A stretch of DNA of 64,000 nucleotides from an uncultured Gammaproteobacteria bacterium (GTDB lineage Bacteria; Pseudomonadota; Gammaproteobacteria; Competibacterales; JAHEDQ01). This document shows positions 23,101 through 38,865 of this stretch, one piece after another (the stretch's first letter is position 1; each line of letters begins with the position of its first letter). The stretch covers positions 114,627-178,626 of the forward strand of contig CAWAOU010000018.1 in the NCBI GenBank assembly GCA_963783675.1, given 5' to 3'. Position numbers and translations under genes: made by a program. The notes under the pieces are model-generated. The model was not told where the DNA came from. It saw only the letters and a program-made list of their open reading frames with translations, and did not search any database.

Positions 23101-26100
23101 CTACTGTGAATCCGGCTCTAGTACTCGACGCCGGGCCGCGTAGTACATCACCGGGATGACCAGCAGGGTCAAAACTGTAGACACCAGGATGCCGAATATC
23201 AGCGATACCGCGAGGCCACTGAAGATGGGGTCGTCGAGGATAAAAAACGCCCCCAGCATGGCCGCCAGCCCGGTGAGTACGATGGGCTTGGCGCGAACCG
23301 CGCCGGAACGTATCACCGCCTCCTGAAACGGTATGCCCTCGGCGACCTGTTGATTGATGAAATCCACCAGCAGTATCGAGTTCCGCACGATGATGCCGGC
23401 CAGGGCGATCATTCCGATCATGGAGGTGGCGGTGAACTGGGCTCCGGTGAGTGCATGCCCCGGCATCACACCGATGATGGTCATGGGGATCGGCGCCATG
23501 ATGATCAAAGGCACCAGGTAGGATTTGAACTGCGCGACCACCAGCAGGTAGATCAGCACCAGACCCACCGAGTAGGCGATGCCCATGTCGCGGAATGTGT
23601 CATAGGTAATCTGCCACTCGCCGTCCCACTTCATGCTGTAGGTGTAGGGATTGTCGGGTTGACTGATCAAGTACTGATCGATCGGGCCATCTCCTTCCAT
23701 ATCGATCTCATGGAGGGCGCCCGCAATCTCATACATGCCGTACAACGGGCTGTCCAGGTCTCCGGCCATATCTGCGATGACGAACACAACCGGGAGCAGA
23801 TCCTTGTGATATATGGCGTTTTCGCGGGGTTTGAACTCGGCCTCCGCTATTTCGACCAGCGGGATCAGCGCCCCACTGGCACTGGGCAGCTGCAGGGCGT
23901 GAAACGCATTGAGATCGGCTTTGTCGGCGGCTGAAAACTCAAGCCGAATCGGAATCGGGTACTTGACGTTCGCCCCGTGCAGATAGCCCACGTCGTCGCC
24001 CCTCAGGGCGGTGGACACCGCCTGAGCGACACTGTGCTGGGACACCCCCAACTCGGATGCCCGTTGGCGGTCTACCTTGACTACGATCCGGCGTGAGGGT
24101 GTTTCCACCGAATCATCCACGTCAACGATATCCGCAGTGCCCTCGAAAACAGCGCGAACGGAACGCGCCACCCGGATCTGGCCCTGGTAATCCAGGCCGT
24201 AGACCTCCGCCACCAGCGGTGACATGACCGGGGGACCCGGCGGTACCTCCACCACCTTCACGTTTGCGTTCAGCCGCCGGGCGATGGGCTGAAGCGCGTC
24301 CCGCACCGCGCGGGCGATTTCGTGACTCTTGCGCTCGCGCAGTTTCTTGTCCACCAGGTTGACCTGTATGTCACCCACATTCGCGCCCTCACGCAAATAA
24401 TACTGGCGTACCAGGCCGTTGAAGTTGATGGGGGCGGCGGTCCCGGCGTAGACCTGATAATCCGTTACTTCTGGCAGTTCTGCGATGCGGGCGGCCAACT
24501 CGCTGAGCACCCGGGCCGTGTGTTCGACGGTTGTGCCCTCGGGCATGTCCACCACCACCTGGAACTCGGACTTATTGTCGAATGGCAGCATCTTCAAGAC
24601 CACGAACTGGAAATAGACCAGACTCAGGGATCCGACGATCAGCACCAGCACCACCACGCCCAGAGCAAAGCGCATGGGGATGCCTTTTCGACCGCGGAGA
24701 AAGGGGCCAATCAGCGCGCCGAAGAACCGCTCAAGCTTGGGATTTGCCGGAGCCGAATTTGCATTATCCCCATGCTTTTCCACCACGTTGCGGATCACCT
24801 TGTAAGTCAGCCACGGGGTCAACACAAAGGCCACAATCAACGAAATCAGCATGCCGGCGCTGGCGTTGATGGGTATAGGACTCATGTACGGACCCATCAA
24901 TCCGCTGACGAAGGCCATGGGCAGCAGCGCGGCGATCACGGTAAACGTAGCCAGAATTGTGGGGCCGCCCACCTCATCCACGGCGATGGGAATGGCCTCG
25001 CGCAGGGATTTACCACCCATTTGCACATGCCGGTGGATGTTCTCCACCACCACGATGGCATCGTCGACCAGGATGCCGATGGAGAAAATAAGGGCGAACA
25101 GAGACACCCGATTCAGGGTAAAACCCCATGCCCAGGAGGCAAACAGCGTGATGGTGAGGGTAATGACCACGGCGGCGCCGACGATCAGCGACTCGCGCCA
25201 TCCCAGCGCCAGCCAGACCAGCAACACCACCGAGGCGGTGGCAAAAACAAGCTTCTTGATCAGAGTTTTGGCCTTGTCATCGGCGGTCGCGCCGTAGTCC
25301 CGTGTCAGGGTCACCTCAACCCCATCCGGAATGACAATGCCCTTCAGTTGCTCGACCCGCTTGCTGACCTTGCGGGCGATCTGAACCGCGTTTTCACCGG
25401 GTTTCTTGGCAACGGCGACGGTCACCGCCGGAAACTCGCCCCGCGCGGAAATCCCTTTGACGCCGGCTTCGGGGCCAGTACCCATCCAGACATATTGCTC
25501 GGGTTGATCCGGTCCCTGACGCAGATCGGCCACGTCCTCCAGGTACACGGGCGTGCCGTTGTGCAGACCCACCACAAGCCCACCCACATCTTCGGGGGTC
25601 AGCAAGAAAGTCCCGGCCTGGACCGGGATCTCAGTGTTGTCCCGCACCGTGGCGCCGGCGTCAACCGAGGTGTTGGCAGAGCGCAGGGCTGTGCGTAACT
25701 CGTTCACCGAAAGCCCGAATCCGGCCATACGCTGAGGGTCCAGCAACACATGGACGACATGATCCGGACCGCCGATGGTGTAGATGTCCCGGGTACCCGG
25801 CACCCGTTTCAGCTCCGCCTCGATGGCATGCGCCACCTGGGCCAGCTCAAACGCGCCGCGCTTGGGGTCTTCGGTCCATAGGGTAAGGGTCACGATGGGG
25901 ACATCGTCGATACCCTTGGGCTTGATAATGGCCTGACCCACACCCAGGTTTGCCGGCAGCCAGTCCTGGTTGGAAAACACCTGGTTGTACAGACGTACGA
26001 TGGCATCGGTTCGACTCTCGCCCACCTTGTACTGAACCGTGAGCACCGACATACCGGGTCGCGAGACCGAGTAAATGTGATCTATGCCCTCGATCTCCGA

Positions 26101-26337
26101 CAGGACCTGTTCCGCTGGGGTGCTGACCAACTGCTCCACCTCCTCCGCCGTGGCGCCGGCGAAGGGGATGAACACATTGGCGAAGGTGACGTCGATCTGA
26201 GGTTCTTCCTCGCGCGGTGTCACCAGAACCGCGAACACGCCCATGAGCAAGCCCACCAGCGCCAGCAAAGGGGTGATTTCCGACACCAGAAAAGTACGCG
26301 CGATGGTGCCGGAAACACCCAGTCTGCTTGTACTCAC
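23101..26337 (-). CDS. RND efflux transporter permease (AcrB/AcrD/AcrF family)
   Basis: 1078 aa, 12-TM RND topology with two large periplasmic loops. Typical blocks IFSIGILVDDAIVVVENI and ALAGIIVRNSILLVDF. Confidence 0.95.
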   Translation of the reverse strand: MSTSRLGVSGTIARTFLVSEITPLLALVGLLMGVFAVLVTPREEEPQIDVTFANVFIPFAGATAEEVEQLVSTPAEQVLSEIEGIDHIYSVSRPGMSVLTVQYKVGESRTDAIVRLYNQVFSNQDWLPANLGVGQAIIKPKGIDDVPIVTLTLWTEDPKRGAFELAQVAHAIEAELKRVPGTRDIYTIGGPDHVVHVLLDPQRMAGFGLSVNELRTALRSANTSVDAGATVRDNTEIPVQAGTFLLTPEDVGGLVVGLHNGTPVYLEDVADLRQGPDQPEQYVWMGTGPEAGVKGISARGEFPAVTVAVAKKPGENAVQIARKVSKRVEQLKGIVIPDGVEVTLTRDYGATADDKAKTLIKKLVFATASVVLLVWLALGWRESLIVGAAVVITLTITLFASWAWGFTLNRVSLFALIFSIGILVDDAIVVVENIHRHVQMGGKSLREAIPIAVDEVGGPTILATFTVIAALLPMAFVSGLMGPYMSPIPINASAGMLISLIVAFVLTPWLTYKVIRNVVEKHGDNANSAPANPKLERFFGALIGPFLRGRKGIPMRFALGVVVLVLIVGSLSLVYFQFVVLKMLPFDNKSEFQVVVDMPEGTTVEHTARVLSELAARIAELPEVTDYQVYAGTAAPINFNGLVRQYYLREGANVGDIQVNLVDKKLRERKSHEIARAVRDALQPIARRLNANVKVVEVPPGPPVMSPLVAEVYGLDYQGQIRVARSVRAVFEGTADIVDVDDSVETPSRRIVVKVDRQRASELGVSQHSVAQAVSTALRGDDVGYLHGANVKYPIPIRLEFSAADKADLNAFHALQLPSASGALIPLVEIAEAEFKPRENAIYHKDLLPVVFVIADMAGDLDSPLYGMYEIAGALHEIDMEGDGPIDQYLISQPDNPYTYSMKWDGEWQITYDTFRDMGIAYSVGLVLIYLLVVAQFKSYLVPLIIMAPIPMTIIGVMPGHALTGAQFTATSMIGMIALAGIIVRNSILLVDFINQQVAEGIPFQEAVIRSGAVRAKPIVLTGLAAMLGAFFILDDPIFSGLAVSLIFGILVSTVLTLLVIPVMYYAARRRVLEPDSQ

Positions 26338-27404
26338 GGCGCCCCCTCCCGCTGCGCTTTGAGCGCGATACCCGCCTGAATCGGGTCAAGCGCAACCCGC
26401 TCGCCCGCCTGAAGTCCAGCCAACACCTCAATGGACTCGCTCCCGGTGCGGCCGACCCTCACCTGCCGCAACACGATTCGGCCGGCATCGCCCACCACAT
26501 ACACACCGGTCACCTCGCTGCGCCGGACAACCGCCGCTTTGGGCACCAGCATTCGCTGGTCCTCACCGACCACGAAGCCGATCTTGGCGAACATGCCGGG
26601 AAAGACACCCGGCACACCGGCCGGCAGATACGCCCGCACCTTAAACGTGCCGCTTTGCGGGTCGGCATAGGGAAAGATCGTCAACTCAAGTGCCAAGGTA
26701 CCCCCAGGCTCCGCGGGATCGATCCAGACCCTTGCCTGGTCATGCCGCCGCACCGATTCAATCAGCCGTTGCGGCACATCGGCAAGGATGCGCAGCTCTT
26801 CCAGGGACACCCCGCTCAGGAGAGATTGACCGGGCTGCACAGCTTCGCCCAGCTGCACGTGACGTCCCAGGACGATGCCGCTGTAGGGCGCCCTGACCAG
26901 GGTGTACGCCAACTGCTGCTCGGTCCGGTCCAGCACGGCTGCTGTCGCTTCCAACCGGGCCTGAGCGGATTTCAGCTCGGCCTGTGCCGAATCCAGGGCC
27001 GATTTCGCCACCAGACCCCGATCGAACACCTGTTGAATCCGGCCGAACTCGGCCTGCGCCTGCTCTAGACGTGCCTGAGCCTCGGCCCGATTGGCTTCGG
27101 CCTGCTCCATGGCTGCACGCTGTTCACCATCCACCAGGCGAACGATGACCGAGCCCTTCTCCACGTAGTCGTTTACGTCGAACAGGATTTCCTGAACCCG
27201 GCCCGCGGTTTGAGCCGAGACCGTACTCTGATTCACCGCCTCCACCACCCCGTCGGCAACGAATTCACGCACCACCGTCTGATAGTCGACGGTAGCCGTT
27301 TCCAGCGCCGGCTGCGCCACGGCCCCGTGTGCCACACACAAGAGCAGCGCTGCGCCAACTGACCGCAACTCAAAGCACTTACTTCGCCTCATAGGCCGCT
27401 CCAA
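26334..27404 (-). CDS. RND efflux periplasmic adaptor (membrane fusion protein)
   Basis: 356 aa with a signal peptide, a coiled-coil hairpin (AEAQARLEQAQAEFGR...AQAELKSAQARLE) and a beta-barrel domain. 4-nt overlap with the permease gene. Confidence 0.9.
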   Translation of the reverse strand: MERPMRRSKCFELRSVGAALLLCVAHGAVAQPALETATVDYQTVVREFVADGVVEAVNQSTVSAQTAGRVQEILFDVNDYVEKGSVIVRLVDGEQRAAMEQAEANRAEAQARLEQAQAEFGRIQQVFDRGLVAKSALDSAQAELKSAQARLEATAAVLDRTEQQLAYTLVRAPYSGIVLGRHVQLGEAVQPGQSLLSGVSLEELRILADVPQRLIESVRRHDQARVWIDPAEPGGTLALELTIFPYADPQSGTFKVRAYLPAGVPGVFPGMFAKIGFVVGEDQRMLVPKAAVVRRSEVTGVYVVGDAGRIVLRQVRVGRTGSESIEVLAGLQAGERVALDPIQAGIALKAQREGAP

Positions 27405-27427
27405 AGGTTTGTTCGCTTGACTATCGA

Positions 27428-27451
27428 ATATATTAGATAATTCTAATATAT
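27428..27451. promoter_or_regulatory. Perfect 10-bp inverted repeat (candidate operator) upstream of the RND operon
   Basis: ATATATTAGA-taat-TCTAATATAT in an AT-rich island 24 bp upstream of the adaptor gene start. Confidence 0.4.
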
Positions 27452-27738
27452 GTGCACCGACACCGGCAAACCTGAATCAAGGAATGGCGGGATCCCCGTC
27501 GAACCCAGTGTGTTCACGAGCAGAGATCAGTGGCGCCTCTATAGACCAATCCGGGGCGCCTGCCCGGTCAACAGCATGCTGGTTGGCGAACCTGTTGCAG
27601 TCGGAGACAGCGCAGCAGCTTGCGACGATTGCCCGTCTCGGCCGGGACCCAGGGCACCTGCCCCGACTGTATGCCGGGTACGGGAATCCAATGTGCGAGA
27701 CGGGGCCCAGGCATAGACCGGACTGCACCCGGAAACGT

Positions 27739-28899
27739 CTACTCGGTCCGTTTAAACATTGCCATCAAAGTCTGCCTGGGTAACGGATCCATATTCATGA
27801 CCTGGATCAGATCGGTCACCTGATCCGGGTCCGAAATCCCCACCAGCGTTGTTCCGATACCGGGGGTGGAACGGTTGAACTGCAGCGCACGCTGGACCGG
27901 CGAAAGTGCCGGCAATGCCGCCTCCAGAGTCTCGGCTGACCGTTTGGCCAAGTGGCCTTTGAGCAGCGTGTGACTGGCCAGCAGATACAGCTTGAGCTGA
28001 TGCGCCGCCTGCACGGTGCTGGCCACATTGCCCTGCCCGGTGGCTTGATTGAAGCGGCTGAAACCTTCCAGCATGACCTGGTTGTAAGGCATCGACACCA
28101 ACTTGAGATGGTGCCGCGCCTGGGCACGGCCCTCGACCGCCTGGACAGCCTTTTCGGCCAGGCCCAACAGCGAGGCCAAGGATTGAAACAGGAGGTGATC
28201 CGTTTCCACCCGGAAACCGTCGAAGGTGCTTATGCCGTAGCAACGCAGACGGCCATCGCGAACAGCACGCTCAAGCAGGATAAAGACCTGCAGCAATTTC
28301 CGGTTCAGAGCCTCCTTGCCGATACCTGCGATGTGCACCTCGGGTTGGTCCACCAAAAATGCGTCCAGGGTGTCGATCCCCATCAAAGTTCGGGACAATT
28401 CCAACTGATAATTGATGTAGGCCGGGCTGATCAGGTGAGACATACCGGCGAGGTCATCCCGCGTACCCAGCCCCTGGGCGACGATCTCGCGTTCAAACCA
28501 AAGCTCCGGATCATCAGGCCGACCGCCGCGCCAGGACAGAAACCCACCCTTGGACACCAGGAACATGGCCGCCCGTGGCACACCCGCTTCCACCGCAGCA
28601 CGCACCCCCGCCCCCACCGCCGCCAGAGCCCGCCCATAGCGATAGTGCGCCGCGGTATCGACCACATTGATGCCGGACTGCAGCGCTCGAGTCACGGCGC
28701 CGGCCACCTGGGCGTCGGCAGCGGGACTGGCCGCGCCCGGAAAGGTCCCGACCCCAATCGAGCTGAGACGGATCCGGGTGCGCAGGAAATCGCTGTAATG
28801 ACCCGCACCCGCATGGGCGGCATGGATCGCGGCATAAGCCCGGGTAGCCTCAGGCGTCGCACTGCCGGCAAGGCGCCGGTGGCCGCTTTTCAGAGTCAA
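27739..28899 (-). CDS. Aldo/keto reductase family oxidoreductase
   Basis: 386 aa. AKR blocks (INVVDTAAHYRYGR; LVSKGG; YGISTF). Confidence 0.75.
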   Translation of the reverse strand: MTLKSGHRRLAGSATPEATRAYAAIHAAHAGAGHYSDFLRTRIRLSSIGVGTFPGAASPAADAQVAGAVTRALQSGINVVDTAAHYRYGRALAAVGAGVRAAVEAGVPRAAMFLVSKGGFLSWRGGRPDDPELWFEREIVAQGLGTRDDLAGMSHLISPAYINYQLELSRTLMGIDTLDAFLVDQPEVHIAGIGKEALNRKLLQVFILLERAVRDGRLRCYGISTFDGFRVETDHLLFQSLASLLGLAEKAVQAVEGRAQARHHLKLVSMPYNQVMLEGFSRFNQATGQGNVASTVQAAHQLKLYLLASHTLLKGHLAKRSAETLEAALPALSPVQRALQFNRSTPGIGTTLVGISDPDQVTDLIQVMNMDPLPRQTLMAMFKRTE

Positions 28900-30077
28900 C
28901 CCGCGCCTCCAAACAGCGGATGCTGTCGTATGAGCCGCTGCGTCCGATCCAGTACTTCGGGTCTCGCCGGAGCGGCGTTCGGACCGTCCAGCCGACCCGT
29001 AAAAAAGCCGGGAAAGTAATCTTCGTCCTCATCCATATCCCAGTCCACGGCACGCAACAGATCGACCCCGGATCGGGGCAGCGCATTGGGCAGTCTGCGT
29101 CCGGACAGCACAGCCCAGACTCCGGTCCAGCAGCGCGCCAGAGCCAGTGGATGGTAGCCTCCACCCCCGGTCACCAGCAGCCGGGGCGTACCGTGGGCAT
29201 CGGTCGGCGCACCTCGCATGATTTCACGCACCAGTTGCAGAAAGAAGCGGGTGGAAAGCTTGAACTTGCCGAGCGGGTCTGGGGCCAGGGCGTCGGTGCC
29301 GGCCTGGAGCACCACCACGTCCGGTGCCGCGGCAGCCAGCAGCCGTGGCCAGATGCGCCAGAACAGCGTGTGATACTCACTGTCGTTTACCCCCGGTGGC
29401 AGAGGCAGATTGACCGCATTGCCCGATGGCCCGCAGTCCTCGCTCCGACCACCGACAAAGGGATAAGCGTACGCAGGGTCCATATGCACCGAAAAGGTAA
29501 TCACCGCCGGGTCATCTCTGAACGCATATTCGACTCCGTCACCATGATGGGCGTCTATATCCACATACAGAACCCGCAGGCCGGCCTGACGCAAGCGAAA
29601 AATGGCCAGCACCGGGTCGTTGAAAAAGCAAAAGCCCCGGGCCTGATCGGGCATGGCGTGGTGCATCCCGCCGGCCGGATTGAACGCCACCCGTCCTGCG
29701 AGCACCGCTTCCGCGCCCTGAATGCTGCCGCCCGCAGCGGTGGCCGGCGTCGTGAAAAAGCCATCGAAATAGGGGTTTTCGAAATTGCCGATATTGTGCC
29801 GCTGACGATACCGATGCGTGACCTTGCCCAGGGCCTGACAACGCTGCATTGCGGCTATGTATCCTGGCGTGTGAAACCAGGACAGCTCCGCCACTGTGGC
29901 GGCGCGGGCCGGCAGCATTTCGTGGGGCCTCAAAGCGCCATAGGCAACAATCAAATCCTGGGTAAGGGACACCCGTGGAATGGCCAGAGGATGGTTCTCA
30001 CCATAGCTGTGGCGCCGGTACCCGCCCGCGCCGATGAACACGGCCGGTAGCGTGGGTGCCGGGTCCGACAGGTCCAT
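28896..30077 (-). CDS. Histone deacetylase-family protein (AcuC/acetoin-utilisation-type deacetylase)
   Basis: HDAC catalytic blocks (GGMHHAMPDQARGFCFFND; YVDIDAHHGDGVEYAF; GGGGYHP). Start is trimmed to the ATG at 30077 (MDLSDPAP...). 4-nt overlap with the AKR gene. Confidence 0.85.
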   Translation of the reverse strand: MDLSDPAPTLPAVFIGAGGYRRHSYGENHPLAIPRVSLTQDLIVAYGALRPHEMLPARAATVAELSWFHTPGYIAAMQRCQALGKVTHRYRQRHNIGNFENPYFDGFFTTPATAAGGSIQGAEAVLAGRVAFNPAGGMHHAMPDQARGFCFFNDPVLAIFRLRQAGLRVLYVDIDAHHGDGVEYAFRDDPAVITFSVHMDPAYAYPFVGGRSEDCGPSGNAVNLPLPPGVNDSEYHTLFWRIWPRLLAAAAPDVVVLQAGTDALAPDPLGKFKLSTRFFLQLVREIMRGAPTDAHGTPRLLVTGGGGYHPLALARCWTGVWAVLSGRRLPNALPRSGVDLLRAVDWDMDEDEDYFPGFFTGRLDGPNAAPARPEVLDRTQRLIRQHPLFGGAG

Positions 30078-30442
30078 GGCGGGTACTTCAGCCTCGACCA
30101 AGCCTACTCCTCCTGGCCCGTCGGAAAGCGAACCCGGCAAACCGGCGCGAAGGGGCAACCCACCCGTGGGGCCCCGCATCCGGGCGTTGCGACGGCATCA
30201 ATGAATGACTCCCTGGGAACGTACTGACCATGCAGCGGCTCGCGGCGCAACAGCGGACATAACGATACCCGTGGCTGTCCTGCAGCCCGTATCGCGCAAG
30301 TATATAATGTTGCGCTAATATACTGGTTGCGCTCATGTATAGATAGTCGTGCGTCGGTGCCTGTCGCTTTGATCCAACACCCGGATATACTTCCGGACTC
30401 CGCCACCATCTGGGGCGCGTACCGATCTGGGGAGTCCACCCT

Positions 30443-30624: not shown

Positions 30625-31470
30625 ATGACTGAACGACGCTCCCCTGGCCGCCCTCGAACGACGCCTCCCACCCGGACCAGTGCCCAGTCGGGCAGTGGCC
30701 AGGTTCAGTCCCTGACCCGTGGCCTGCGTCTGCTGACGGCGCTGGCCGAGGCCGGGGATGGCGCCACGCTGACCGACCTCGCGCTCCAGGTGGGGCTGGC
30801 CCCCTCCACCACCCACCGGCTTCTGAATACCTTGGAAAAGGAGGCCTTTGTCCATCAGGACACGGGCCAGGGGCGCTGGTTTGTGAGCGTCAAGGCGTTC
30901 CAGGTTGGCAACGCGTTTCTCAATACCCGCGACATCGTGGCACGTGCCCGGCCCCACCTGCAGGAACTGATGGAAGCCTCGGGGGAAACAGTGAACCTGG
31001 CGGTGCCCGACCAGGGTGAAGCCGTGATGATGGCCCAGGTGCAATGCCACGAGATGATGCGCATGCTGGTGCCGTTGGGCAGTCGCGCACCGATGCACGC
31101 CTCCGGCGTGGGCAAGGCGCTGCTGGCAGCCATGTCCAACAGCGAGGTGAACCGCATCATCGAACAGCGCGGTCTGTCGAGTTACACGGATTCCACGATG
31201 GACAGTCCGGAACGACTGATGATCGAGCTCAACGCGGTCCGCGAAGCAGGCTGGGCATACGACAACGAAGAGCATGCTGTGGGATTGCGCTGCGTGGCAG
31301 CGCCCATTTACGACGAACACGGGCTGCCGGTGGCGGCCATTTCCGTCTCCGGACCCCGTTCCCGCGTATCCAACGAGCAAGTCGCCGAGCTCGGATCCAT
31401 GGTGTCCCGTGCCGCGGCGAGCATCACGCGGGCCATCGGCGGTGCAGCCCCGCGCAACACCACCGCGTGA
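30625..31470 (+). CDS. IclR family transcriptional regulator
   Basis: N-terminal wHTH (VQSLTRGLRLLTALAEAGDGATLTDLALQVGLAPSTTHRLLNTLE) plus an IclR effector domain. Confidence 0.9.
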   Translation: MTERRSPGRPRTTPPTRTSAQSGSGQVQSLTRGLRLLTALAEAGDGATLTDLALQVGLAPSTTHRLLNTLEKEAFVHQDTGQGRWFVSVKAFQVGNAFLNTRDIVARARPHLQELMEASGETVNLAVPDQGEAVMMAQVQCHEMMRMLVPLGSRAPMHASGVGKALLAAMSNSEVNRIIEQRGLSSYTDSTMDSPERLMIELNAVREAGWAYDNEEHAVGLRCVAAPIYDEHGLPVAAISVSGPRSRVSNEQVAELGSMVSRAAASITRAIGGAAPRNTTA

Positions 31471-31605: not shown

Positions 31606-31926
31606 ATGATCAACCTCATCAGGTCGGTCCACATCAACGGGGTGGAATTCAACACCAACCGGGATCCACAGTTCTACCGTCGCAGCGTCAACGAACCGTT
31701 CTCCATCCAGCTCTATCTGACCGGCACCGGTCGCGCCGATGCGACTCTGGAGATCGCAGGCGAAGGCGAAGACGCAAAATCGATCGAACTGCCCGGGCGC
31801 GTCGCCTGGGAGGCCCGGTTTGAATCCGCCGGTACGCGCGTCGGGCGGGTCACCGTCACCTGCGGTGATCAGAGCGAACACAGAGACTTGCGGTTTGACG
31901 TGGAAGCACATGCCTGGGTCGGCTGA
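31606..31926 (+). CDS. Hypothetical small protein
   Basis: 106 aa from the ATG at 31606 (GGAG 6 nt upstream). No recognisable motif; composition suggests a beta-rich fold. Confidence 0.45.
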   Translation: MINLIRSVHINGVEFNTNRDPQFYRRSVNEPFSIQLYLTGTGRADATLEIAGEGEDAKSIELPGRVAWEARFESAGTRVGRVTVTCGDQSEHRDLRFDVEAHAWVG

Positions 31927-31973: not shown

Positions 31974-32363
31974 TCATCCGCCCCAGGCATACTGCTCGAA
32001 GAACATCGGTAACACCCGGCCGACTTCGTTCTTGGCGAAGAATCGATCGGCCCGGGCCAGACGCATCTCGTCCCGGATGTCATCATCACCGCCAAAGCAG
32101 AATACGGCCAGGTTGATCTGGTGCTGGTTTCTGATTTCGCGAATCACGTCCATGGGATCAAAGACATCGCATTCGTCGAGATCCAGAACCAGGAAACGAA
32201 ACAACAACAGTTCATGCCATTCGCCGGCCTGGTCCAGATCATCCACCTTAACCTGATCCCAACCCGGAGGCGTAAGGCTCTGACAGTCCGCCACAAAGCC
32301 ACCGTCGGTGCTGAGCAGCAGATAGCGTCGCCTTAAGCGCTGCTCGATGGTCGGTTCACTCAT
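31974..32363 (-). CDS. Degenerate CheY-like receiver domain protein
   Basis: 129 aa. Receiver-like spacing (RYLLLSTDGG; FLVLDLDECDVFDPMDVIREIR; LAVFCFGGDDD; FFAKNE) with incomplete acidic-pocket conservation. 4-nt overlap with the upstream LplA-like gene. Confidence 0.45.
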   Translation of the reverse strand: MSEPTIEQRLRRRYLLLSTDGGFVADCQSLTPPGWDQVKVDDLDQAGEWHELLLFRFLVLDLDECDVFDPMDVIREIRNQHQINLAVFCFGGDDDIRDEMRLARADRFFAKNEVGRVLPMFFEQYAWGG

Positions 32364-33352
32364 GGGATTCCCCGTACGATTTCCCGCGCCTCGTCTACCA
32401 GCGGTATCGCGCCTGTCGGCCCAAGACAGCGGCGTGCCGCCCGCTCGAACGCCTTGGATGAGGGCGCCAGGCCCTTTAGCTCGTCCAACGCCCGATCCCG
32501 ATGCCGAATACGCATTATTCTGCCTTGTTTCAGGATCAGCCGGGTTGACTCGAGTTCAAGCAGAAAGGTCCCGTGGTTCACCTTGATGCCATGACGAACC
32601 TGGCGGCGGCCATCGGGGTATGCACTCTGTTCCAGTTCTGCCCTGACCTCGGGCAGTTCGTCCCGTTCAGCCGCGGTCAGTTCGGATCCGGCGAAACGCA
32701 GACCCAGGTTATCGCCCAAAGCGGTGCGGAATCGTTGGGCAAGCTCAGACCGTTTCGGGGGAATGCCCTCAGTCATCCAGTCGGTCATCCCGTCACGCAG
32801 GGCCCGAGCCAGCCAGTTACGGTACCCAGACGTGGGTGCCGAGACCAGACCGGCGAAGGTTTCGGCATCGAACCGATGCATAAAACTTGAGCCAATCAAA
32901 TGCGCCTCTCCCACGCTTGCGGCGCCGCTGCCCAGGATCTTGCGTTCAACACACCAAAGATCGCCGATCCCGACGGTTCGCAGGTTCAGCCCAAAAGCAC
33001 GGTAGGTGCTGCGGGCTGCCGCGAGCACCATGGAAAACAAGGTCACCCTCGCCGCCTTGATCAGATCGCGGTGCACGATCAGATAGAAACTGTCCTGCCC
33101 ATCGTCCACCAGTACGGTGCCCCCACCCAGGCAGCGGCGGGTTGTCACGACCCCCCGTGACTGGCAGGCACCCAGATCCAGTTCCGCGCCCGGATCCTGA
33201 CTCGCACCGACGCACATCTGGGTTTGGGCAGAGCGCATCCACACCAAGACCGACGAGTCACCGACCCGCATGCATTCGGCGATGGCCATGGGAACCGCAT
33301 GCATTTCCCGAGGATCGGTGGCGCCGAGTTCGATCCAGCGACCCACTGTCAT
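32360..33352 (-). CDS. Lipoate-protein ligase A-like protein (second, divergent LplA paralog)
   Basis: 330 aa, collinear with E. coli LplA. Motifs: TTRRCLGGGTVLVDDGQDSFY (RRxxGGGxV motif) and the catalytic-lysine block VERKILGSGAAS. Confidence 0.7.
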   Translation of the reverse strand: MTVGRWIELGATDPREMHAVPMAIAECMRVGDSSVLVWMRSAQTQMCVGASQDPGAELDLGACQSRGVVTTRRCLGGGTVLVDDGQDSFYLIVHRDLIKAARVTLFSMVLAAARSTYRAFGLNLRTVGIGDLWCVERKILGSGAASVGEAHLIGSSFMHRFDAETFAGLVSAPTSGYRNWLARALRDGMTDWMTEGIPPKRSELAQRFRTALGDNLGLRFAGSELTAAERDELPEVRAELEQSAYPDGRRQVRHGIKVNHGTFLLELESTRLILKQGRIMRIRHRDRALDELKGLAPSSKAFERAARRCLGPTGAIPLVDEAREIVRGIP

Positions 33353-33503
33353 AAAGCGAAAGCAGGCATTTGCGTCAGGCAGACAGCAGGGAAAGGCAGT
33401 GACAACTCAGGGAGCCTCGGATCTATTGGTGAACGTTCATCCTGGGACAAGAATCTGCTTCGTTCAGAACCAATCAGAGGCGCCTCAGCCAAGCGGGGTA
33501 GCC

Positions 33504-33905
33504 TCACTCACCGTCCGCATCGGCGGCCGGATCGGACCGGTAAAATTGCTTGAAGTAGAAATCCTTCTGGCGAAGCTCCTGATACAGAGCCGCACGCTCC
33601 TCCACGCCTTGGCGCAGAATTCGGATCAGAGCCTTGGCCTGCTCCCCGTCCACCAAGTGCATTTGGCCGACCAGATCATGATCCGTTTCCAGAATATGGC
33701 CCTCCAGTTCCCCCGGCTGATCCAGATAGAGCAACATGGATGCACATTCCGGATCCTCCGGATCCAGCGGCTGAAACACCACCTTGCCCAGCCAGGCGAG
33801 TCTGGCCACCTGATTGAACTGTCCTAGATCGAACTTCTTGCCCTGTTTGTACTTGTTCAACTCATTGCGGATGGCGCCGAGATTGGTGACCTTGATGGAT
33901 TTCAT
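33504..33905 (-). CDS. Hypothetical protein
   Basis: 133 aa ORF, co-directional between the fadL-like and lplA-like genes. No recognisable motif. Confidence 0.5.
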   Translation of the reverse strand: MKSIKVTNLGAIRNELNKYKQGKKFDLGQFNQVARLAWLGKVVFQPLDPEDPECASMLLYLDQPGELEGHILETDHDLVGQMHLVDGEQAKALIRILRQGVEERAALYQELRQKDFYFKQFYRSDPAADADGE

Positions 33906-33963: not shown

Positions 33964-35310
33964 TCAGAATCGCTTGGAGTAATTGAGGGACAGTTCGTAC
34001 TGCTTCATCTCGAGCTCAACATTCTGCGACGGATCAAAGGCGTTGGGGCCCTTGACCGACTCGGACGGCGCATACATAAAAGAAAAATCGATGCCGCTGT
34101 CGTCGCTGAGCGTCCGGGTGAAGCCAAAAGTGAAGTGCTGCTTGACCACCCCTGGGGCCAGAATATTGAACAGCACCTGGCTCTTCGGGATGGGTTGATC
34201 GTTGTATGAGTATCCCGCGCGCCAGGTCCATGCGGGGCTGGATTGCCATTGAAAACCCAGTTTATAGACATTTATGTTCTGCCAGCCGAAGCCGGGACCC
34301 TTGTTGCCGCCCAGCAGAAGATCGTTGTTTCCGGTCATCGCCCCCTGCATCAGGGAACTGGTATTCAGCTTATTGTGTATGGAATCCTCGTCGCTGTACC
34401 AGATGCGCTGCCAATCGAAAAACAGGGTCTTGGAGTCATCCACGTCCCAGGCCAGCCCCAGGCTTAAGGTGGATGGGATGTCGAAACTGCCTTGATTTGC
34501 GAACAGGCCCTTGTAGTCATCGAACTTGGTCATCCAGATTTTGCTCTGGTAGGCCAGCCCCAGATGCAAGCCGTCAACCACCTCGCCCTGGAGACCCAGG
34601 CGCACGCCCATGCCATAGGAAAAATCATGACCATTGTTGGTCAGTTTGTCCGGGTTGCTGGAGAACCCGAACTGACCGAAACGTCCCAACCCTTTTGCCT
34701 CAAACCATTGCATCGCCACAATGGGCGTCACCCCCCAGGAAAACTTCTCATTGATACGGCGCGAATACGTCGGGGAAATAAACAGCTGCATGAGATCAAC
34801 GCCGGTCTCGCCATCGCAGAAGGTGCCGCCCTGCCCCGGCGGAATACCGGTGCCCGGCGCCCCGGCCAACGCGCACGATGCATTGGAACTGTAGTCAGTG
34901 TTCATACCGCCGTTGCCGTATACCGCCACACCCCAGGAGGATTCTTCGTCAATCTCGCTGGCATAGCCGAAACTCGGCAGCAGGAAGTAGTTGGAGTCAC
35001 TGTCTTCCTTACCCTGTCCCAGGGGGAACGTGCCGGGCTGAAACGAGGGGTTGCCGCTGACGGTATACTTGCGGCGCGGGCTGAACAGGGCCGCCCCCAG
35101 ATCCCACTGATTGCCGATGTTGACCAGCCCGGCCGGGTTCATGGCCTGGGCCAGTGAGTCCTGAGGCTTGGCCACCCCGGCCCCGGCCAACCCTTTATGG
35201 ATGGTGCTGTAACCATTGGCGAAGTACCCGGTGGTGGCCTGGGCACCCGTCCCAGCCAGCAGGGCGAGACTCGCCGCACCCGCTGCAAGTAGGTGTGATA
35301 ACTTCCTCAC
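33964..35310 (-). CDS. FadL/TodX-family outer membrane transporter for hydrophobic compounds
   Basis: 448 aa. Signal peptide ending AQA. N-terminal hatch motif TTGYFANGYSTIHKGLAGAGVA. Beta-barrel with a C-terminal aromatic residue (YSKRF). Confidence 0.85.
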   Translation of the reverse strand: MRKLSHLLAAGAASLALLAGTGAQATTGYFANGYSTIHKGLAGAGVAKPQDSLAQAMNPAGLVNIGNQWDLGAALFSPRRKYTVSGNPSFQPGTFPLGQGKEDSDSNYFLLPSFGYASEIDEESSWGVAVYGNGGMNTDYSSNASCALAGAPGTGIPPGQGGTFCDGETGVDLMQLFISPTYSRRINEKFSWGVTPIVAMQWFEAKGLGRFGQFGFSSNPDKLTNNGHDFSYGMGVRLGLQGEVVDGLHLGLAYQSKIWMTKFDDYKGLFANQGSFDIPSTLSLGLAWDVDDSKTLFFDWQRIWYSDEDSIHNKLNTSSLMQGAMTGNNDLLLGGNKGPGFGWQNINVYKLGFQWQSSPAWTWRAGYSYNDQPIPKSQVLFNILAPGVVKQHFTFGFTRTLSDDSGIDFSFMYAPSESVKGPNAFDPSQNVELEMKQYELSLNYSKRF

Positions 35311-36694: not shown

Positions 36695-37774
36695 TCAGGC
36701 AAAGTACTCGTCGAATGCGATCCAGCCCCGCCGCATTGCTGCGTCAGAACCGGCCATCGATGTCCGCCACACGGCGGCCAACTCAAGGCGCCGCGCCACC
36801 GCGCGATCCAGCGCAACCTGAAACTGGTCACGCATGTCTTCTTCGTAATCATCCAGGGCCGCATGGTCACCGCCCAACCAGGCCCGCGCCGCCGCACCGG
36901 CAGCCTCACCGGACACCACGGCAGCGTGGATTCCCGCGCCCGTAATGGGATGGGTCAGGCCGGCCGCGTCCCCCACAAACACCGCCGCGCCCCAATGGAG
37001 TTGCGAACGCAAACCGCCCACGGGAATCAATCCACCGGTGCGACCCAGAATGCGTCGGCCGACAATGCCGCGCTCCACCATGCTGGCGTGCAGTCGATCC
37101 AGGGGGCCTTTCAGATCACGGTCGTAGCGGCGATCAGCGCCCAGTCCGAGATTGGCGACCTCTCCCTTGGGAAACAGCCAGCCATAGCCGCCGGGGTAGT
37201 CATCGGACAGGAATACATCGGTGTCGCCGTAGGGCAACCGCAACGGTACCGTATATTGCCGGGTGTTGACCGTCTCCAGGGGTGTCAAACCAAGTTTCTC
37301 CGCAACCGATGAACCGGGTCCGTCGGCAGCGATCAACAGCCGATAGGCAATGCTTTCCAGGGCGCCGTTCTGGCGCCTTATCTGGGCCTGATTGCGCGCC
37401 GGGTCCAGATTCACCAGGCCGGCGCCGCTCCACAGCTCGGCGCCGGCCTGCCGGGCTCGAGCCGCGATGGCCTGATCAAAGCGGGCCCGGTCTATCATCA
37501 GACCGGGAAACTCGGTGGCTACGCGCGCATGGGAGGGCAACTCGGTTTGCATACCGTTGATCCGCTGAACCAGGACCCCGTCCTCACGGGCATATCCCCC
37601 CATGGGGTTGGGAATGAACTCCGCGCACTGAACCGGGCTGCCCAACTGCTGCTTGCGATCGATCCCAACAACGCTCAGGCCGGCCGCTGCCGCACTGGCG
37701 GCCGCACTGCCGCCACCGGGTCCCAGGCCGACGATCAGCAGGTCCACCTCACGGCGGCGCTGTGCTTCAGCCAT
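36695..37774 (-). CDS. Geranylgeranyl-reductase-like FAD-dependent oxidoreductase (LipT-type)
   Basis: FAD fingerprint DLLIVGLGPGGGSAAASAAAAG. Start is trimmed to the ATG at 37774, which overlaps the upstream stop in ATGGCTGA (8-nt overlap). Confidence 0.8.
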   Translation of the reverse strand: MAEAQRRREVDLLIVGLGPGGGSAAASAAAAGLSVVGIDRKQQLGSPVQCAEFIPNPMGGYAREDGVLVQRINGMQTELPSHARVATEFPGLMIDRARFDQAIAARARQAGAELWSGAGLVNLDPARNQAQIRRQNGALESIAYRLLIAADGPGSSVAEKLGLTPLETVNTRQYTVPLRLPYGDTDVFLSDDYPGGYGWLFPKGEVANLGLGADRRYDRDLKGPLDRLHASMVERGIVGRRILGRTGGLIPVGGLRSQLHWGAAVFVGDAAGLTHPITGAGIHAAVVSGEAAGAAARAWLGGDHAALDDYEEDMRDQFQVALDRAVARRLELAAVWRTSMAGSDAAMRRGWIAFDEYFA

Positions 37775-38273
37775 GGACCTGCTCCGGTGCCGAGGCAACC
37801 GCCGACCGGATCGCGGCAACCAGGTCAGCAGGCTCAAGCATCAACATCTGCACCGGGTACTGATCGAAAAAGCGACTGACATTGCGCTCCAACTCGGCCA
37901 GCGCCGTGTTTCGCAATGCGCTTTCCAGATCCACCACCACACGTCTGGGTGCGGCGAAAAAATCCCCGGTGATCCACACCTGGTTCAACCGTTGCCGAGG
38001 CTGGTCAAGCACCACCCCACAGCGCAGGGTGCCACCGCTGCACCGGTGGATCGCTTCACGCATCGGCGCCTCGGTGACCGGTCGATCGCGTTGATAGACC
38101 CAGTCGTCGCAGTCGATTTCTGCCAGCGCCTCGACATACAGGGCTTGTTCCGCCGAATTGAGTTCCGATGCAACTTCATACCGAGCGCCGAAAGCCTCGC
38201 CAAAGGCGTTCGCAAGTGCCTGTCTGACGGTATCCAGCGGTGGCGGAGATCCGAGCAGATCCTGCAGACTCAC
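37767..38273 (-). CDS. Lipoate-protein ligase sLpl(AB), C-terminal (LplB-like) domain portion
   Basis: 168 aa ORF aligning with the LplA C-terminal domain. Its reading frame stays open upstream and reads PAEKLSDKAIASARERV, continuing the homology of the preceding ORF. Confidence 0.75.
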   Translation of the reverse strand: MSLQDLLGSPPPLDTVRQALANAFGEAFGARYEVASELNSAEQALYVEALAEIDCDDWVYQRDRPVTEAPMREAIHRCSGGTLRCGVVLDQPRQRLNQVWITGDFFAAPRRVVVDLESALRNTALAELERNVSRFFDQYPVQMLMLEPADLVAAIRSAVASAPEQVHG

Positions 38274-38301
38274 GACCCGCTCGCGGGCGGAGGCGATGGC
38301 C

Positions 38302-38865
38302 TTATCCGACAGCTTCTCCGCCGGGAATCCTCAGCACGCGCAGCATCCGCTCAACGTCGAACGCCACCAGCACGGTACCCTGATAAAGTATGGAATCGCC
38401 GTCGAACGCGCCACCGGTGCCCGATATCTTCCGTCCTTCCACCTCGATGTCGTTACGCGGTCGAAAGCGGGCATCGACCCCCAGGCTGCTCAAACCAGCG
38501 GCAGCGGCCTCACAGATGCGTCGGGCGATGGTGGTCATGTCGGCGGTACCCAGCACCGCTTTGTCCAGAAACAGTTCCCAACCCAGATGCTCAGGCGCGA
38601 AGTAAATGGCGCCGCCCCCGGTCAGTCGCCGTTGGATCTCGATATCGTGGGCTCGGATGTAGTCGAGATTGAGCTCCTGCTCAACGTTCTGATGAAACCC
38701 CAGAAGCGCCGAAGCTTGGAAACGCAGGAAGCGCAGCGTATGCGGTGAAGTGCCGGCCTGATGGGACTCGAGCAACGCCCGGTCGATGGCGAAATTCTCC
38801 GCCGCCCGTCTCAAGCCGGTATCCAGCACTCGCCATTGAACCGGGTCTCGTGCCTTCACGGGCAA
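38302..38865 (-). CDS. Lipoate-protein ligase sLpl(AB), N-terminal catalytic domain portion
   Basis: 187 aa. Motifs: IQRRLTGGGAIYFAPEHLGWE and the catalytic-lysine block EGRKISGTGGAF. It ends ...RVLRIPGGEAVG*, exactly where a 1-nt shift would join it to the next ORF. Confidence 0.8.
   Translation of the reverse strand: MPVKARDPVQWRVLDTGLRRAAENFAIDRALLESHQAGTSPHTLRFLRFQASALLGFHQNVEQELNLDYIRAHDIEIQRRLTGGGAIYFAPEHLGWELFLDKAVLGTADMTTIARRICEAAAAGLSSLGVDARFRPRNDIEVEGRKISGTGGAFDGDSILYQGTVLVAFDVERMLRVLRIPGGEAVG

Follow-up and report, generated by a model that had tools for sequence, protein, structure and literature searches.

A conserved operon of an LplA-like ligase paralog and a pseudo-receiver as a candidate accessory module of the sHdr-LbpA lipoate system

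Gene Content of the Locus

Among the routes of sulfur oxidation, the sHdr-LbpA pathway is a major one; the lipoate assembly dedicated to it (sLpl(AB), LipS1/S2, and LipT) was worked out only between 2018 and 2023. Here we analyze a three-gene module beside an sHdr-lipoate cluster in an uncultured gammaproteobacterium. The DNA analyzed is a 64,000-nucleotide stretch of contig CAWAOU010000018.1 (assembly GCA_963783675.1), hereafter "the window." The module, hereafter "the triad," consists of open reading frames (ORFs) for a 133-amino-acid protein (A133), an LplA-like ligase paralog (B), and a degenerate CheY-like protein, or pseudo-receiver (C). The three-gene module is undescribed, and it may mark an unexplored accessory part of the sHdr pathway.

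All three genes are on the minus strand of the window. A133 (33905..33504) is the first gene, and the homologues listed for it carry no Pfam domain. B (33352..32360) encodes 330 amino acids and matches the Pfam family LplA-B_cat (E = 4.8e-17). C (32363..31974) encodes 129 amino acids and was assigned by its fold, using AlphaFold2 and Foldseek. The first-pass annotation of this DNA had reported three ORFs of 133, 330, and 129 amino acids on one strand, with a 4-nt overlap of the last two, and both observations hold: in the sequence ATGA, the start codon of C runs into the stop codon of B. The gap between A133 and B (33353-33503) is 151 nt in the window and 146 nt in locus L011 of our comparison set, and it is 46 nt or less in most loci. 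No Rfam family was found in positions 27000-49000, including this gap, and a scan for promoters and terminators was at background level there as well.

A complete sHdr cluster lies upstream of the triad on the same strand, with genes for a DsrE-like protein, HdrC1, HdrB1, HdrA, a hypothetical protein, HdrC2, and HdrB2. Two GcvH-like LbpA genes with a DsrE gene between them are also upstream, in agreement with the two LbpA paralogs claimed earlier. The lipoate-assembly genes that accompany them encode a radical-SAM protein, sLpl(AB), a LipT-like flavoprotein, and a second radical-SAM protein. They are followed by a gene for a FadL/TodX-type outer-membrane protein (33964..35310, minus strand; Pfam Toluene_X, E = 2e-24), which directly precedes the triad. 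At species level, the window's closest genome is a metagenome-assembled genome (MAG) labelled Candidatus Competibacteraceae bacterium Ww208 (L011), and assembly GCA_942492415.1 holds a contig that is 99.7% identical to the window.

Conservation of the Triad

To assess conservation of the triad, one genome per species was searched with the A133 family, and the window proteins were mapped by tblastn on the resulting 80 loci. C follows A133 in 71 of the 72 species-level loci with enough flank, and in 50 of the 72 B intervenes. The core of the arrangement is therefore the A133/C pair, and B is an optional insert. B is absent, for example, from loci of Ectothiorhodospira and Acidiferrobacter(aceae) and from those of several unclassified Proteobacteria MAGs. 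In metagenomes, a separate search that started from the ligase yielded 29 loci, and all with sufficient flank have A133 upstream of B and C downstream; contigs that were looked up singly have the same A133-B-C order. The arrangement recurs in about 70 genomes at species level and in the 29 loci from metagenomes, so it is not due to chance. The unit first proposed for this locus was the ligase with the receiver. That pairing is conserved, being present in 50 species-level loci and in every sufficiently flanked metagenome locus, but the unit needs redrawing around A133 and C, with the ligase as the optional member.

The spacing of these genes is operon-like. Gaps between A133 and B are mostly 46 nt or less, as noted above, and gaps between B and C are mostly between -20 and +60 nt, with overlap in 14 of 50 loci. 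In nearly all loci without B, A133 and C are separated by -4 to +10 nt. Residues of A133 and C were compared between genomes with and without B, and no pattern hinting at a ligase contact or an acceptor site was found.

The Ligase Paralog

Protein B has the hallmarks of the LplA catalytic domain. It matches Pfam PF21948 (LplA-B_cat) with 63 bits over residues 18-190, where the cut-off is 27. In an alignment with Escherichia coli LplA, Thermoplasma acidophilum LplA, and sLpl(AB), residues R73, G76-78, D131, and K138 of B fall on R70, G73-75, D122, and the catalytic K133 of E. coli LplA. This bears out the R-R-x-x-GGG motif and catalytic lysine block that the first-pass annotation had pointed to. 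E. coli LplA residues H79 and H149 are replaced in B, but also in sLpl(AB), whose ligase activity is proven (Cao et al., 2018). Across 56 non-redundant copies from triad contexts, the R-x-x-GGG and lysine motifs are conserved, with an invariant lysine. From these residues we infer that B is catalytically competent, as an ATP-dependent ligase of the Lpl(AB) type that forms acyl-adenylates.

A different view of B is that of a pseudo-enzyme: a duplicate that is decaying or has lost catalysis and persists solely as a structural partner. Members of the B family share about 30% identity on average, compared to 65% for sLpl(AB) from the same genomes, and such fast divergence, together with a gene that is repeatedly lost or simply optional, would suit this view. 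In addition, 19 of 133 wider family representatives have arginine in the column of the catalytic lysine. However, these cases may reflect a misaligned adjacent R-K pair. R73, G76-78, D83, D131, and K138 are conserved over the triad-context copies and largely so over the 133 clusters (50% identity level), and the B ORF is intact in all loci with full coverage. We consider a pseudo-enzyme very unlikely.

The C-terminal part of B was also compared with known ligases. In hhalign comparison, B aligns with sLpl(AB) of the same loci at E = 6e-48, with residues 3-289 against 8-301, and the alignment reaches the LplB-like accessory domain. B may have the same two-domain layout as sLpl(AB), with a catalytic and an LplB-like domain. 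The B profile does not match the C-terminal domains of solved LplA structures. No fusion of B to A133 or to a receiver-like domain was found in about 175 family sequences (146 representatives and P0001-P0030). A second strongly conserved lysine is present in the C-terminal domain, K257 in a GIK motif; it occurs in 123 of 133 representatives and in less than 70% of the 56-copy locus alignment.

Against the NCBIfam model TIGR00545 (LplA equivalog) B scores 43.5 bits, far below the cut-off of 280. Among solved structures, the best relative of the B family is T. acidophilum LplA (profile E = 3e-21), E. coli LplA is a far weaker match (E = 5e-8), and no LipB, LipM, or LipL chain was matched by the B-family profile in the PDB. 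For the catalytic domain, a neighbor-joining tree (251 columns, 100 bootstraps) was built with few references, on long branches and without LipM, LipL, or LipB; the E. coli LplA reference is identical to 1X2G, and the other solved ligases were included as partial sequences. In this tree the B family is monophyletic (94/100), sLpl(AB) is monophyletic (100/100), and the two are sisters (100/100). Together with T. acidophilum LplA they are set apart from the E. coli, Streptococcus pneumoniae, 8CRI, and Plasmodium ligases (100/100). A housekeeping LplA was considered as an identity for B and ruled out by the TIGR00545 score, the ranking of PDB profiles, and the tree, in which B does not fall in the housekeeping clade and forms a separate clade next to sLpl(AB).

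B also lies outside the clade of characterized sLpl(AB) proteins, to which it is 21-25% identical. We read B as an ancient, rapidly evolving lineage that is sister to the LbpA-specific sLpl(AB). An exhaustive profile search gave 353 B-family clusters (50% identity level) at E <= 1e-30, not all of which need be from a triad context. One distant LplA-like protein (P0029, 30% identity) is outside the triad and adjoins genes for an AhpC/redoxin protein and a PQQ beta-propeller (L125:7508-10275).

The Canonical Ligase Gene

The canonical sLpl(AB) gene of the window (37767..38865, minus strand) is split into two ORFs of 187 and 168 amino acids, with a frame change near 38323. When the intact 363-amino-acid protein of L011 was used in tblastn, the frame changed at residue 178-179. 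The split is caused by one extra C, so that the window reads ATTCCCGGCGG instead of ATTCCGGCGG (CCC vs. CC). It had been suggested earlier that the canonical ligase is frameshifted and that B may supply its function. The split itself is real in the window, but the extra C is missing from four independent and nearly identical assemblies (NCBI, JGI, and two Logan assemblies; 99.6-99.8% identical over 4.6-8.2 kb), which have CC and an intact gene. L011 has CC and an intact gene as well. The extra C is likely either a mistake in the assembly or a mutation that arose very recently in this strain.

These comparisons bear directly on the idea that B backs up or replaces sLpl(AB). The two ORFs in the window are the observation in its favor. 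Against it, the two halves retain 94% and 81% identity with their L011 counterpart, the single extra base is in a short run of C, and sLpl(AB) is full-length (355-373 amino acids) in all other loci that have both it and B. Because the extra C is absent from near-identical assemblies, the idea fails as an explanation of the locus, and we consider compensation by B scarcely credible. The analysis thus corrects a tempting story, that of a second ligase compensating for a broken canonical one.

The Receiver-Like Protein and A133

Receiver domains share a (beta-alpha)5 fold, and C has this fold in an AlphaFold2 model built from 20 homologues (pLDDT 87, pTM 0.83). The best Foldseek matches of the model in the PDB are nearly all receiver domains of response regulators, with TM-scores of 0.6-0.73, and they include the pseudo-receiver of CikA (2J48). 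By sequence the relationship is faint. Pfam Response_reg (PF00072) had no match even at E <= 1 for the window protein and 20 relatives, and the family profile matches the CtrA and 3LTE receivers in the PDB weakly (E = 0.045), with D61 of C falling on the phospho-acceptor aspartate of CtrA.

The phosphorylation site of C is incomplete. Family invariants are D20, D61, D63, a VFCFGG motif that includes Cys89, and an ARADR motif. The phospho-acceptor aspartate D61 is kept, but C departs from the full phosphorylation quintet, which comprises two acidic residues after beta1, Asp after beta3, Thr/Ser after beta4, and Lys after beta5: there is one acidic residue after the first beta strand (D20) instead of two. 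Glycine occupies the conserved threonine position, and most members have arginine at the lysine position, where the window protein has lysine; these two positions were read by eye from the family alignment against the strands of the AlphaFold2 model. Because C combines the receiver fold with an incomplete residue set, "degenerate receiver" is a correct description, as is the incomplete acidic pocket described in the first-pass annotation. Pseudo-receivers such as that of CikA (2J48) and single-domain CheY-like proteins resemble C in fold, in their degenerate residue set, and as stand-alone domains. Unlike these pseudo-receivers, C keeps D61 and has its own invariant VFCFGG and ARADR motifs, and no kinase or output domain is encoded nearby.

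A133 is highly conserved and has no recognizable domain. It has 402 homologues at 55-95% identity, with no Pfam domain among those listed, and Pfam gave no consistent match on 20 members. An N-terminal motif, NELNKY..G.K.D..QFNQ.ARLAWLG, is invariant. The AlphaFold2 model has a pLDDT of 77 and no significant fold match in the PDB (best Foldseek E = 0.9). Sub-threshold matches were to MarR-type regulators and to a PadR C-terminal helix. Residues 66-127 weakly resemble the phycobilisome-linker repeats of Gloeobacter Glr1262 and Glr2806 (PDB 9k9w; summed E = 7e-4); each repeat alone is non-significant and Pfam lends no support, so a linker relationship is unproven. A133 and C are 55-70% identical across orders, belong to no Pfam family, and form a near-obligate pair, which recommends them for structural and genetic studies.

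The fold of C and the weak regulator-like matches of A133 bring up the possibility that the module is regulatory. BirA is a ligase of the BPL/LplA fold that doubles as a repressor, with the acyl-AMP as co-repressor. Single-domain degenerate receivers are usually protein-interaction modules. By analogy, B could be a BirA-like sensor that forms or binds lipoyl- or octanoyl-AMP as a signal and, through A133 and the pseudo-receiver, regulates the expression or the activity of neighboring genes, with no protein modification. The precedent of BirA in the superfamily, the CikA pseudo-receiver among the fold matches of C, and the non-significant MarR-type and PadR matches of A133 are consistent with such a sensor, and one B-family member was named "biotin--protein ligase" at its source. 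However, B has no winged-helix DNA-binding domain, the searches described above gave A133 no significant match to a DNA-binding fold, A133 and C occur without B in about 30% of species, and B is fused to neither partner in the roughly 175 family sequences scanned. We regard the sensor as improbable.

Relation to Described Systems

Lipoate assembly for LbpA is encoded by lipS1-slpl(AB)-lipT-lipS2, with lipY and lipX in addition, as Cao et al. (2018) and Tanabe et al. (2023; PMC10332631) describe in their main texts. A second ligase is not mentioned in either main text, and the earlier proposal that the ligase-receiver pair is outside the described sLpl(AB)/LipS1/LipS2/LipT pathway agrees with this. 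However, one column of Figure 2-source data 1 in Cao et al. (2018) is titled "2. lplA gene," with entries that include TK90_0648, TVD_10570, BJI67_RS04910, Tgr7_2168, AFE_2540, Atc_2337, and others. Hyphomicrobium has "no" in this column, and Ectothiorhodospira has "no" or a weak hit elsewhere (Cao et al., 2018). Such organisms, Ectothiorhodospira among them, correspond to loci in our set with no B next to A133. The spacing of locus tags fits the order lipS2, outer-membrane protein gene, gene for a protein of about 310 amino acids, A133, and B, and the neighboring tag BJI67_04905 is an A133 homologue. The column is a table entry only, and its entries were provisionally matched to the B family by tag position. 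The existence of a B-type paralog is therefore already on record, though unstudied. No description of A133 or of the receiver-like partner was found in the literature, nor was a paper citing the neighboring locus tags.

The closest relative of B is sLpl(AB), for example TK90_0642 (Cao et al., 2018; Tanabe et al., 2023). The two belong to the same superfamily, share the H79/H149 replacements, and occur in the same genomes, usually in the same gene cluster. They differ in that B is a separate, faster-evolving family that is optional in the cluster, and B sits between A133 and the pseudo-receiver, whereas sLpl(AB) is between lipS1 and lipT. In T. acidophilum LplA (2ARS), the catalytic lysine motif EKKIMG aligns with ERKILG of B. 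The archaeal LplA-LplB system needs a separate LplB subunit, whereas B has its own C-terminal domain of about 90 amino acids, with weakly supported homology to LplB.

Second LplA paralogs in accessory operons have a possible parallel outside the Proteobacteria. Firmicutes reportedly have an operon of LplA2, GcvH-L, SirTM, and a macrodomain protein. Like B, the LplA2 of that operon is said to be a second LplA paralog in its own accessory operon with a deacylase-type enzyme. Unlike that operon, the operon described here has no GcvH-like acceptor, sirtuin, or macrodomain; the partners of B are A133 and the pseudo-receiver, and the nearby amidohydrolase is of the HDAC family.

Functional Interpretation

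The genes lipS1-slpl(AB)-lipT-lipS2 are directly upstream of the triad in 38 of 49 loci, comprising all 15 loci without B and 23 of the 34 with B. Linkage to the lipoate-assembly genes is thus strong but not exclusive. Our preferred reading, which we hold tentatively, is that B, within the A133-ligase-pseudo-receiver operon, is a specialized acyl-adenylate ligase module accessory to the sHdr/LbpA system. The operon would then be an accessory module of this lipoate system in gammaproteobacterial sulfur oxidizers. Since the A133/C pair occurs with or without B, it would most likely be a non-phosphorylated adaptor or regulatory pair and the core of the module. B would be an optional add-on, translationally coupled to C, that probably contributes a specialized acylation (lipoyl or octanoyl) in addition to sLpl(AB) and not in its place, or that senses an acyl substrate. 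We infer the catalytic activity of B, a physical interaction of ligase and receiver, and a link to LbpA lipoylation from sequence and gene context.

Several observations weigh against this assignment. sLpl(AB) lipoylates both LbpA1 and LbpA2 in vitro (Cao et al., 2018), so no unmet need for a ligase is evident. B is dispensable in about 30% of species, and it evolves faster than its partners, with about 30-40% identity compared to 55-70% for A133 and C from the same genomes. Neither partner resembles a lipoyl-domain acceptor: C has no conserved lysine, and the invariant K24 of A133 is in a helix-helix loop in the model. The C-terminal domain of B (about 90 amino acids), taken alone with a deeper alignment, matches LplB weakly (E = 4e-4, probability 35%), and with a shallower alignment there is no signal. 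In 11 of 49 loci the triad is at least 6-10 kb from any sHdr-lipoate gene, and the triad is as often linked to a second gene set that contains D106, E134, CbbQ/NorQ-VWA, HDAC-like, and AKR-like genes.

In dozens of genera, a second ligase family, sister to sLpl(AB), is enclosed by two highly conserved proteins, which suggests that the published pathway is incomplete. The pathway may include an acceptor not yet recognized, a further level of regulation, or quality control of lipoylation.

Neighboring Genes

The second conserved set lies downstream of the triad in most loci. It consists of D106 (a 106-amino-acid ORF), E134 (an ORF of about 135 amino acids), an HDAC-like gene, and an AKR-like gene, often with genes for MFP/RND efflux. 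In the window, D106 (31606..31926, plus strand) is convergent with the triad and has a conserved position after C. In most loci it follows C on the opposite strand, and in the window lineage it is downstream of the IclR gene. D106 had no match in Pfam or the PDB, and a profile search with E134 against the PDB gave no match. An IclR-family regulator (30625..31470, plus strand; Pfam IclR_C, E = 2.5e-52) is present in the window and in L007, L008, and L011, while most other loci have E134 and two further genes, F and G, at that place. The genes F and G, which are absent from the window, are downstream of the triad at L010:11809-15200, L009:11403-14811, and L001:12595-16091, for example. F encodes a CbbQ/NorQ-type AAA+ protein with matches to CbbQ (E = 3e-105) and NorQ (E = 7e-99), and G (838 amino acids) matches the NorD VWA domain at its C-terminus (E = 3e-37).

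These neighbors suggest another partner system, in which the triad belongs with the downstream set, B acylates or adenylates a target other than LbpA, and adjacency to sHdr genes is inherited synteny. The downstream neighbors are kept with no sHdr genes within 6-10 kb in L001, L009, L010, L012-14, L017, L056, L062, and L087. Of the 40 loci whose flanks are long on either side, 21 contain both sets, nine have the downstream set only, eight have the sHdr set only, and two have neither, so synteny alone cannot assign the triad to one partner system. The F and G genes occur only where B is present (25 of 41 loci, compared to none of 16), which would fit a shared function of the ligase and the CbbQ/NorQ-VWA pair. 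However, this association may be either a functional link or a nested phylogenetic pattern instead of several independent events. The eight loci with lipoate genes upstream and none of the downstream set also speak against this assignment, as do the 15 loci without B, all of which directly follow lipS2. D106 is on the opposite strand and is therefore not in the triad transcript, and the closest relatives of B are the LbpA-specific sLpl(AB) proteins. We consider assignment to the downstream set unlikely, although it deserves more weight than the other alternatives discussed here, and the accessory role in the sHdr/LbpA system is still preferred.

Anti-phage defense was considered as another role for these genes and rejected. 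PADLOC had no match for A133, B, C, D106, E134, G, or the HDAC-like protein, and the CbbQ-like ATPase gave weak P-loop matches only.

HDAC-family proteins are zinc amidohydrolase-like. The gene in the window (28896..30179, minus strand) has a strong match to Pfam Hist_deacetyl (E = 4e-72), and most sufficiently flanked loci have an HDAC-like gene downstream of the triad. Next to it is a conserved, atypical AKR-like gene (27739..28899, minus strand), which encodes 386 amino acids and matches Pfam Aldo_ket_red over residues 48-227 only (E = 1.4e-17). Across orders, the HDAC-like, AKR-like, and MFP/RND efflux genes (23101-30179, minus strand, in the window) are syntenic with the triad. An HDAC-type amidohydrolase beside a ligase paralog raises the idea of a deacylase partner. 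Extended further, the triad and the HDAC-like protein could form a reversible protein-acylation or acyl-AMP switch on dissimilatory sulfur oxidation, an arrangement that seems improbable on present indications. In such a switch B could be the writer or sensor, the pseudo-receiver and A133 could be specificity or regulatory adaptors, and the HDAC-like protein could be the eraser. The target could be something other than the classical lipoyl-domain lysine, or the lipoylation state of LbpA could be controlled.

Genes upstream of the triad also travel with it. The lipY product is a putative fatty-acid transporter of the FadL/TodX-type kind (Tanabe et al., 2023; PMC10332631). A gene for a FadL-like protein (lipY) and a gene for the protein of about 310 amino acids accompany the triad even where the sHdr-lipoate genes are more than 6 kb away, as in L009:6026-8400, L012, L017, and L005:6808-9338. 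The protein of about 310 amino acids had no Pfam match in our scans and is possibly the published lipX product. The lipY-type gene and this gene may be parts of the triad module and not of lipoate assembly in the strict sense.

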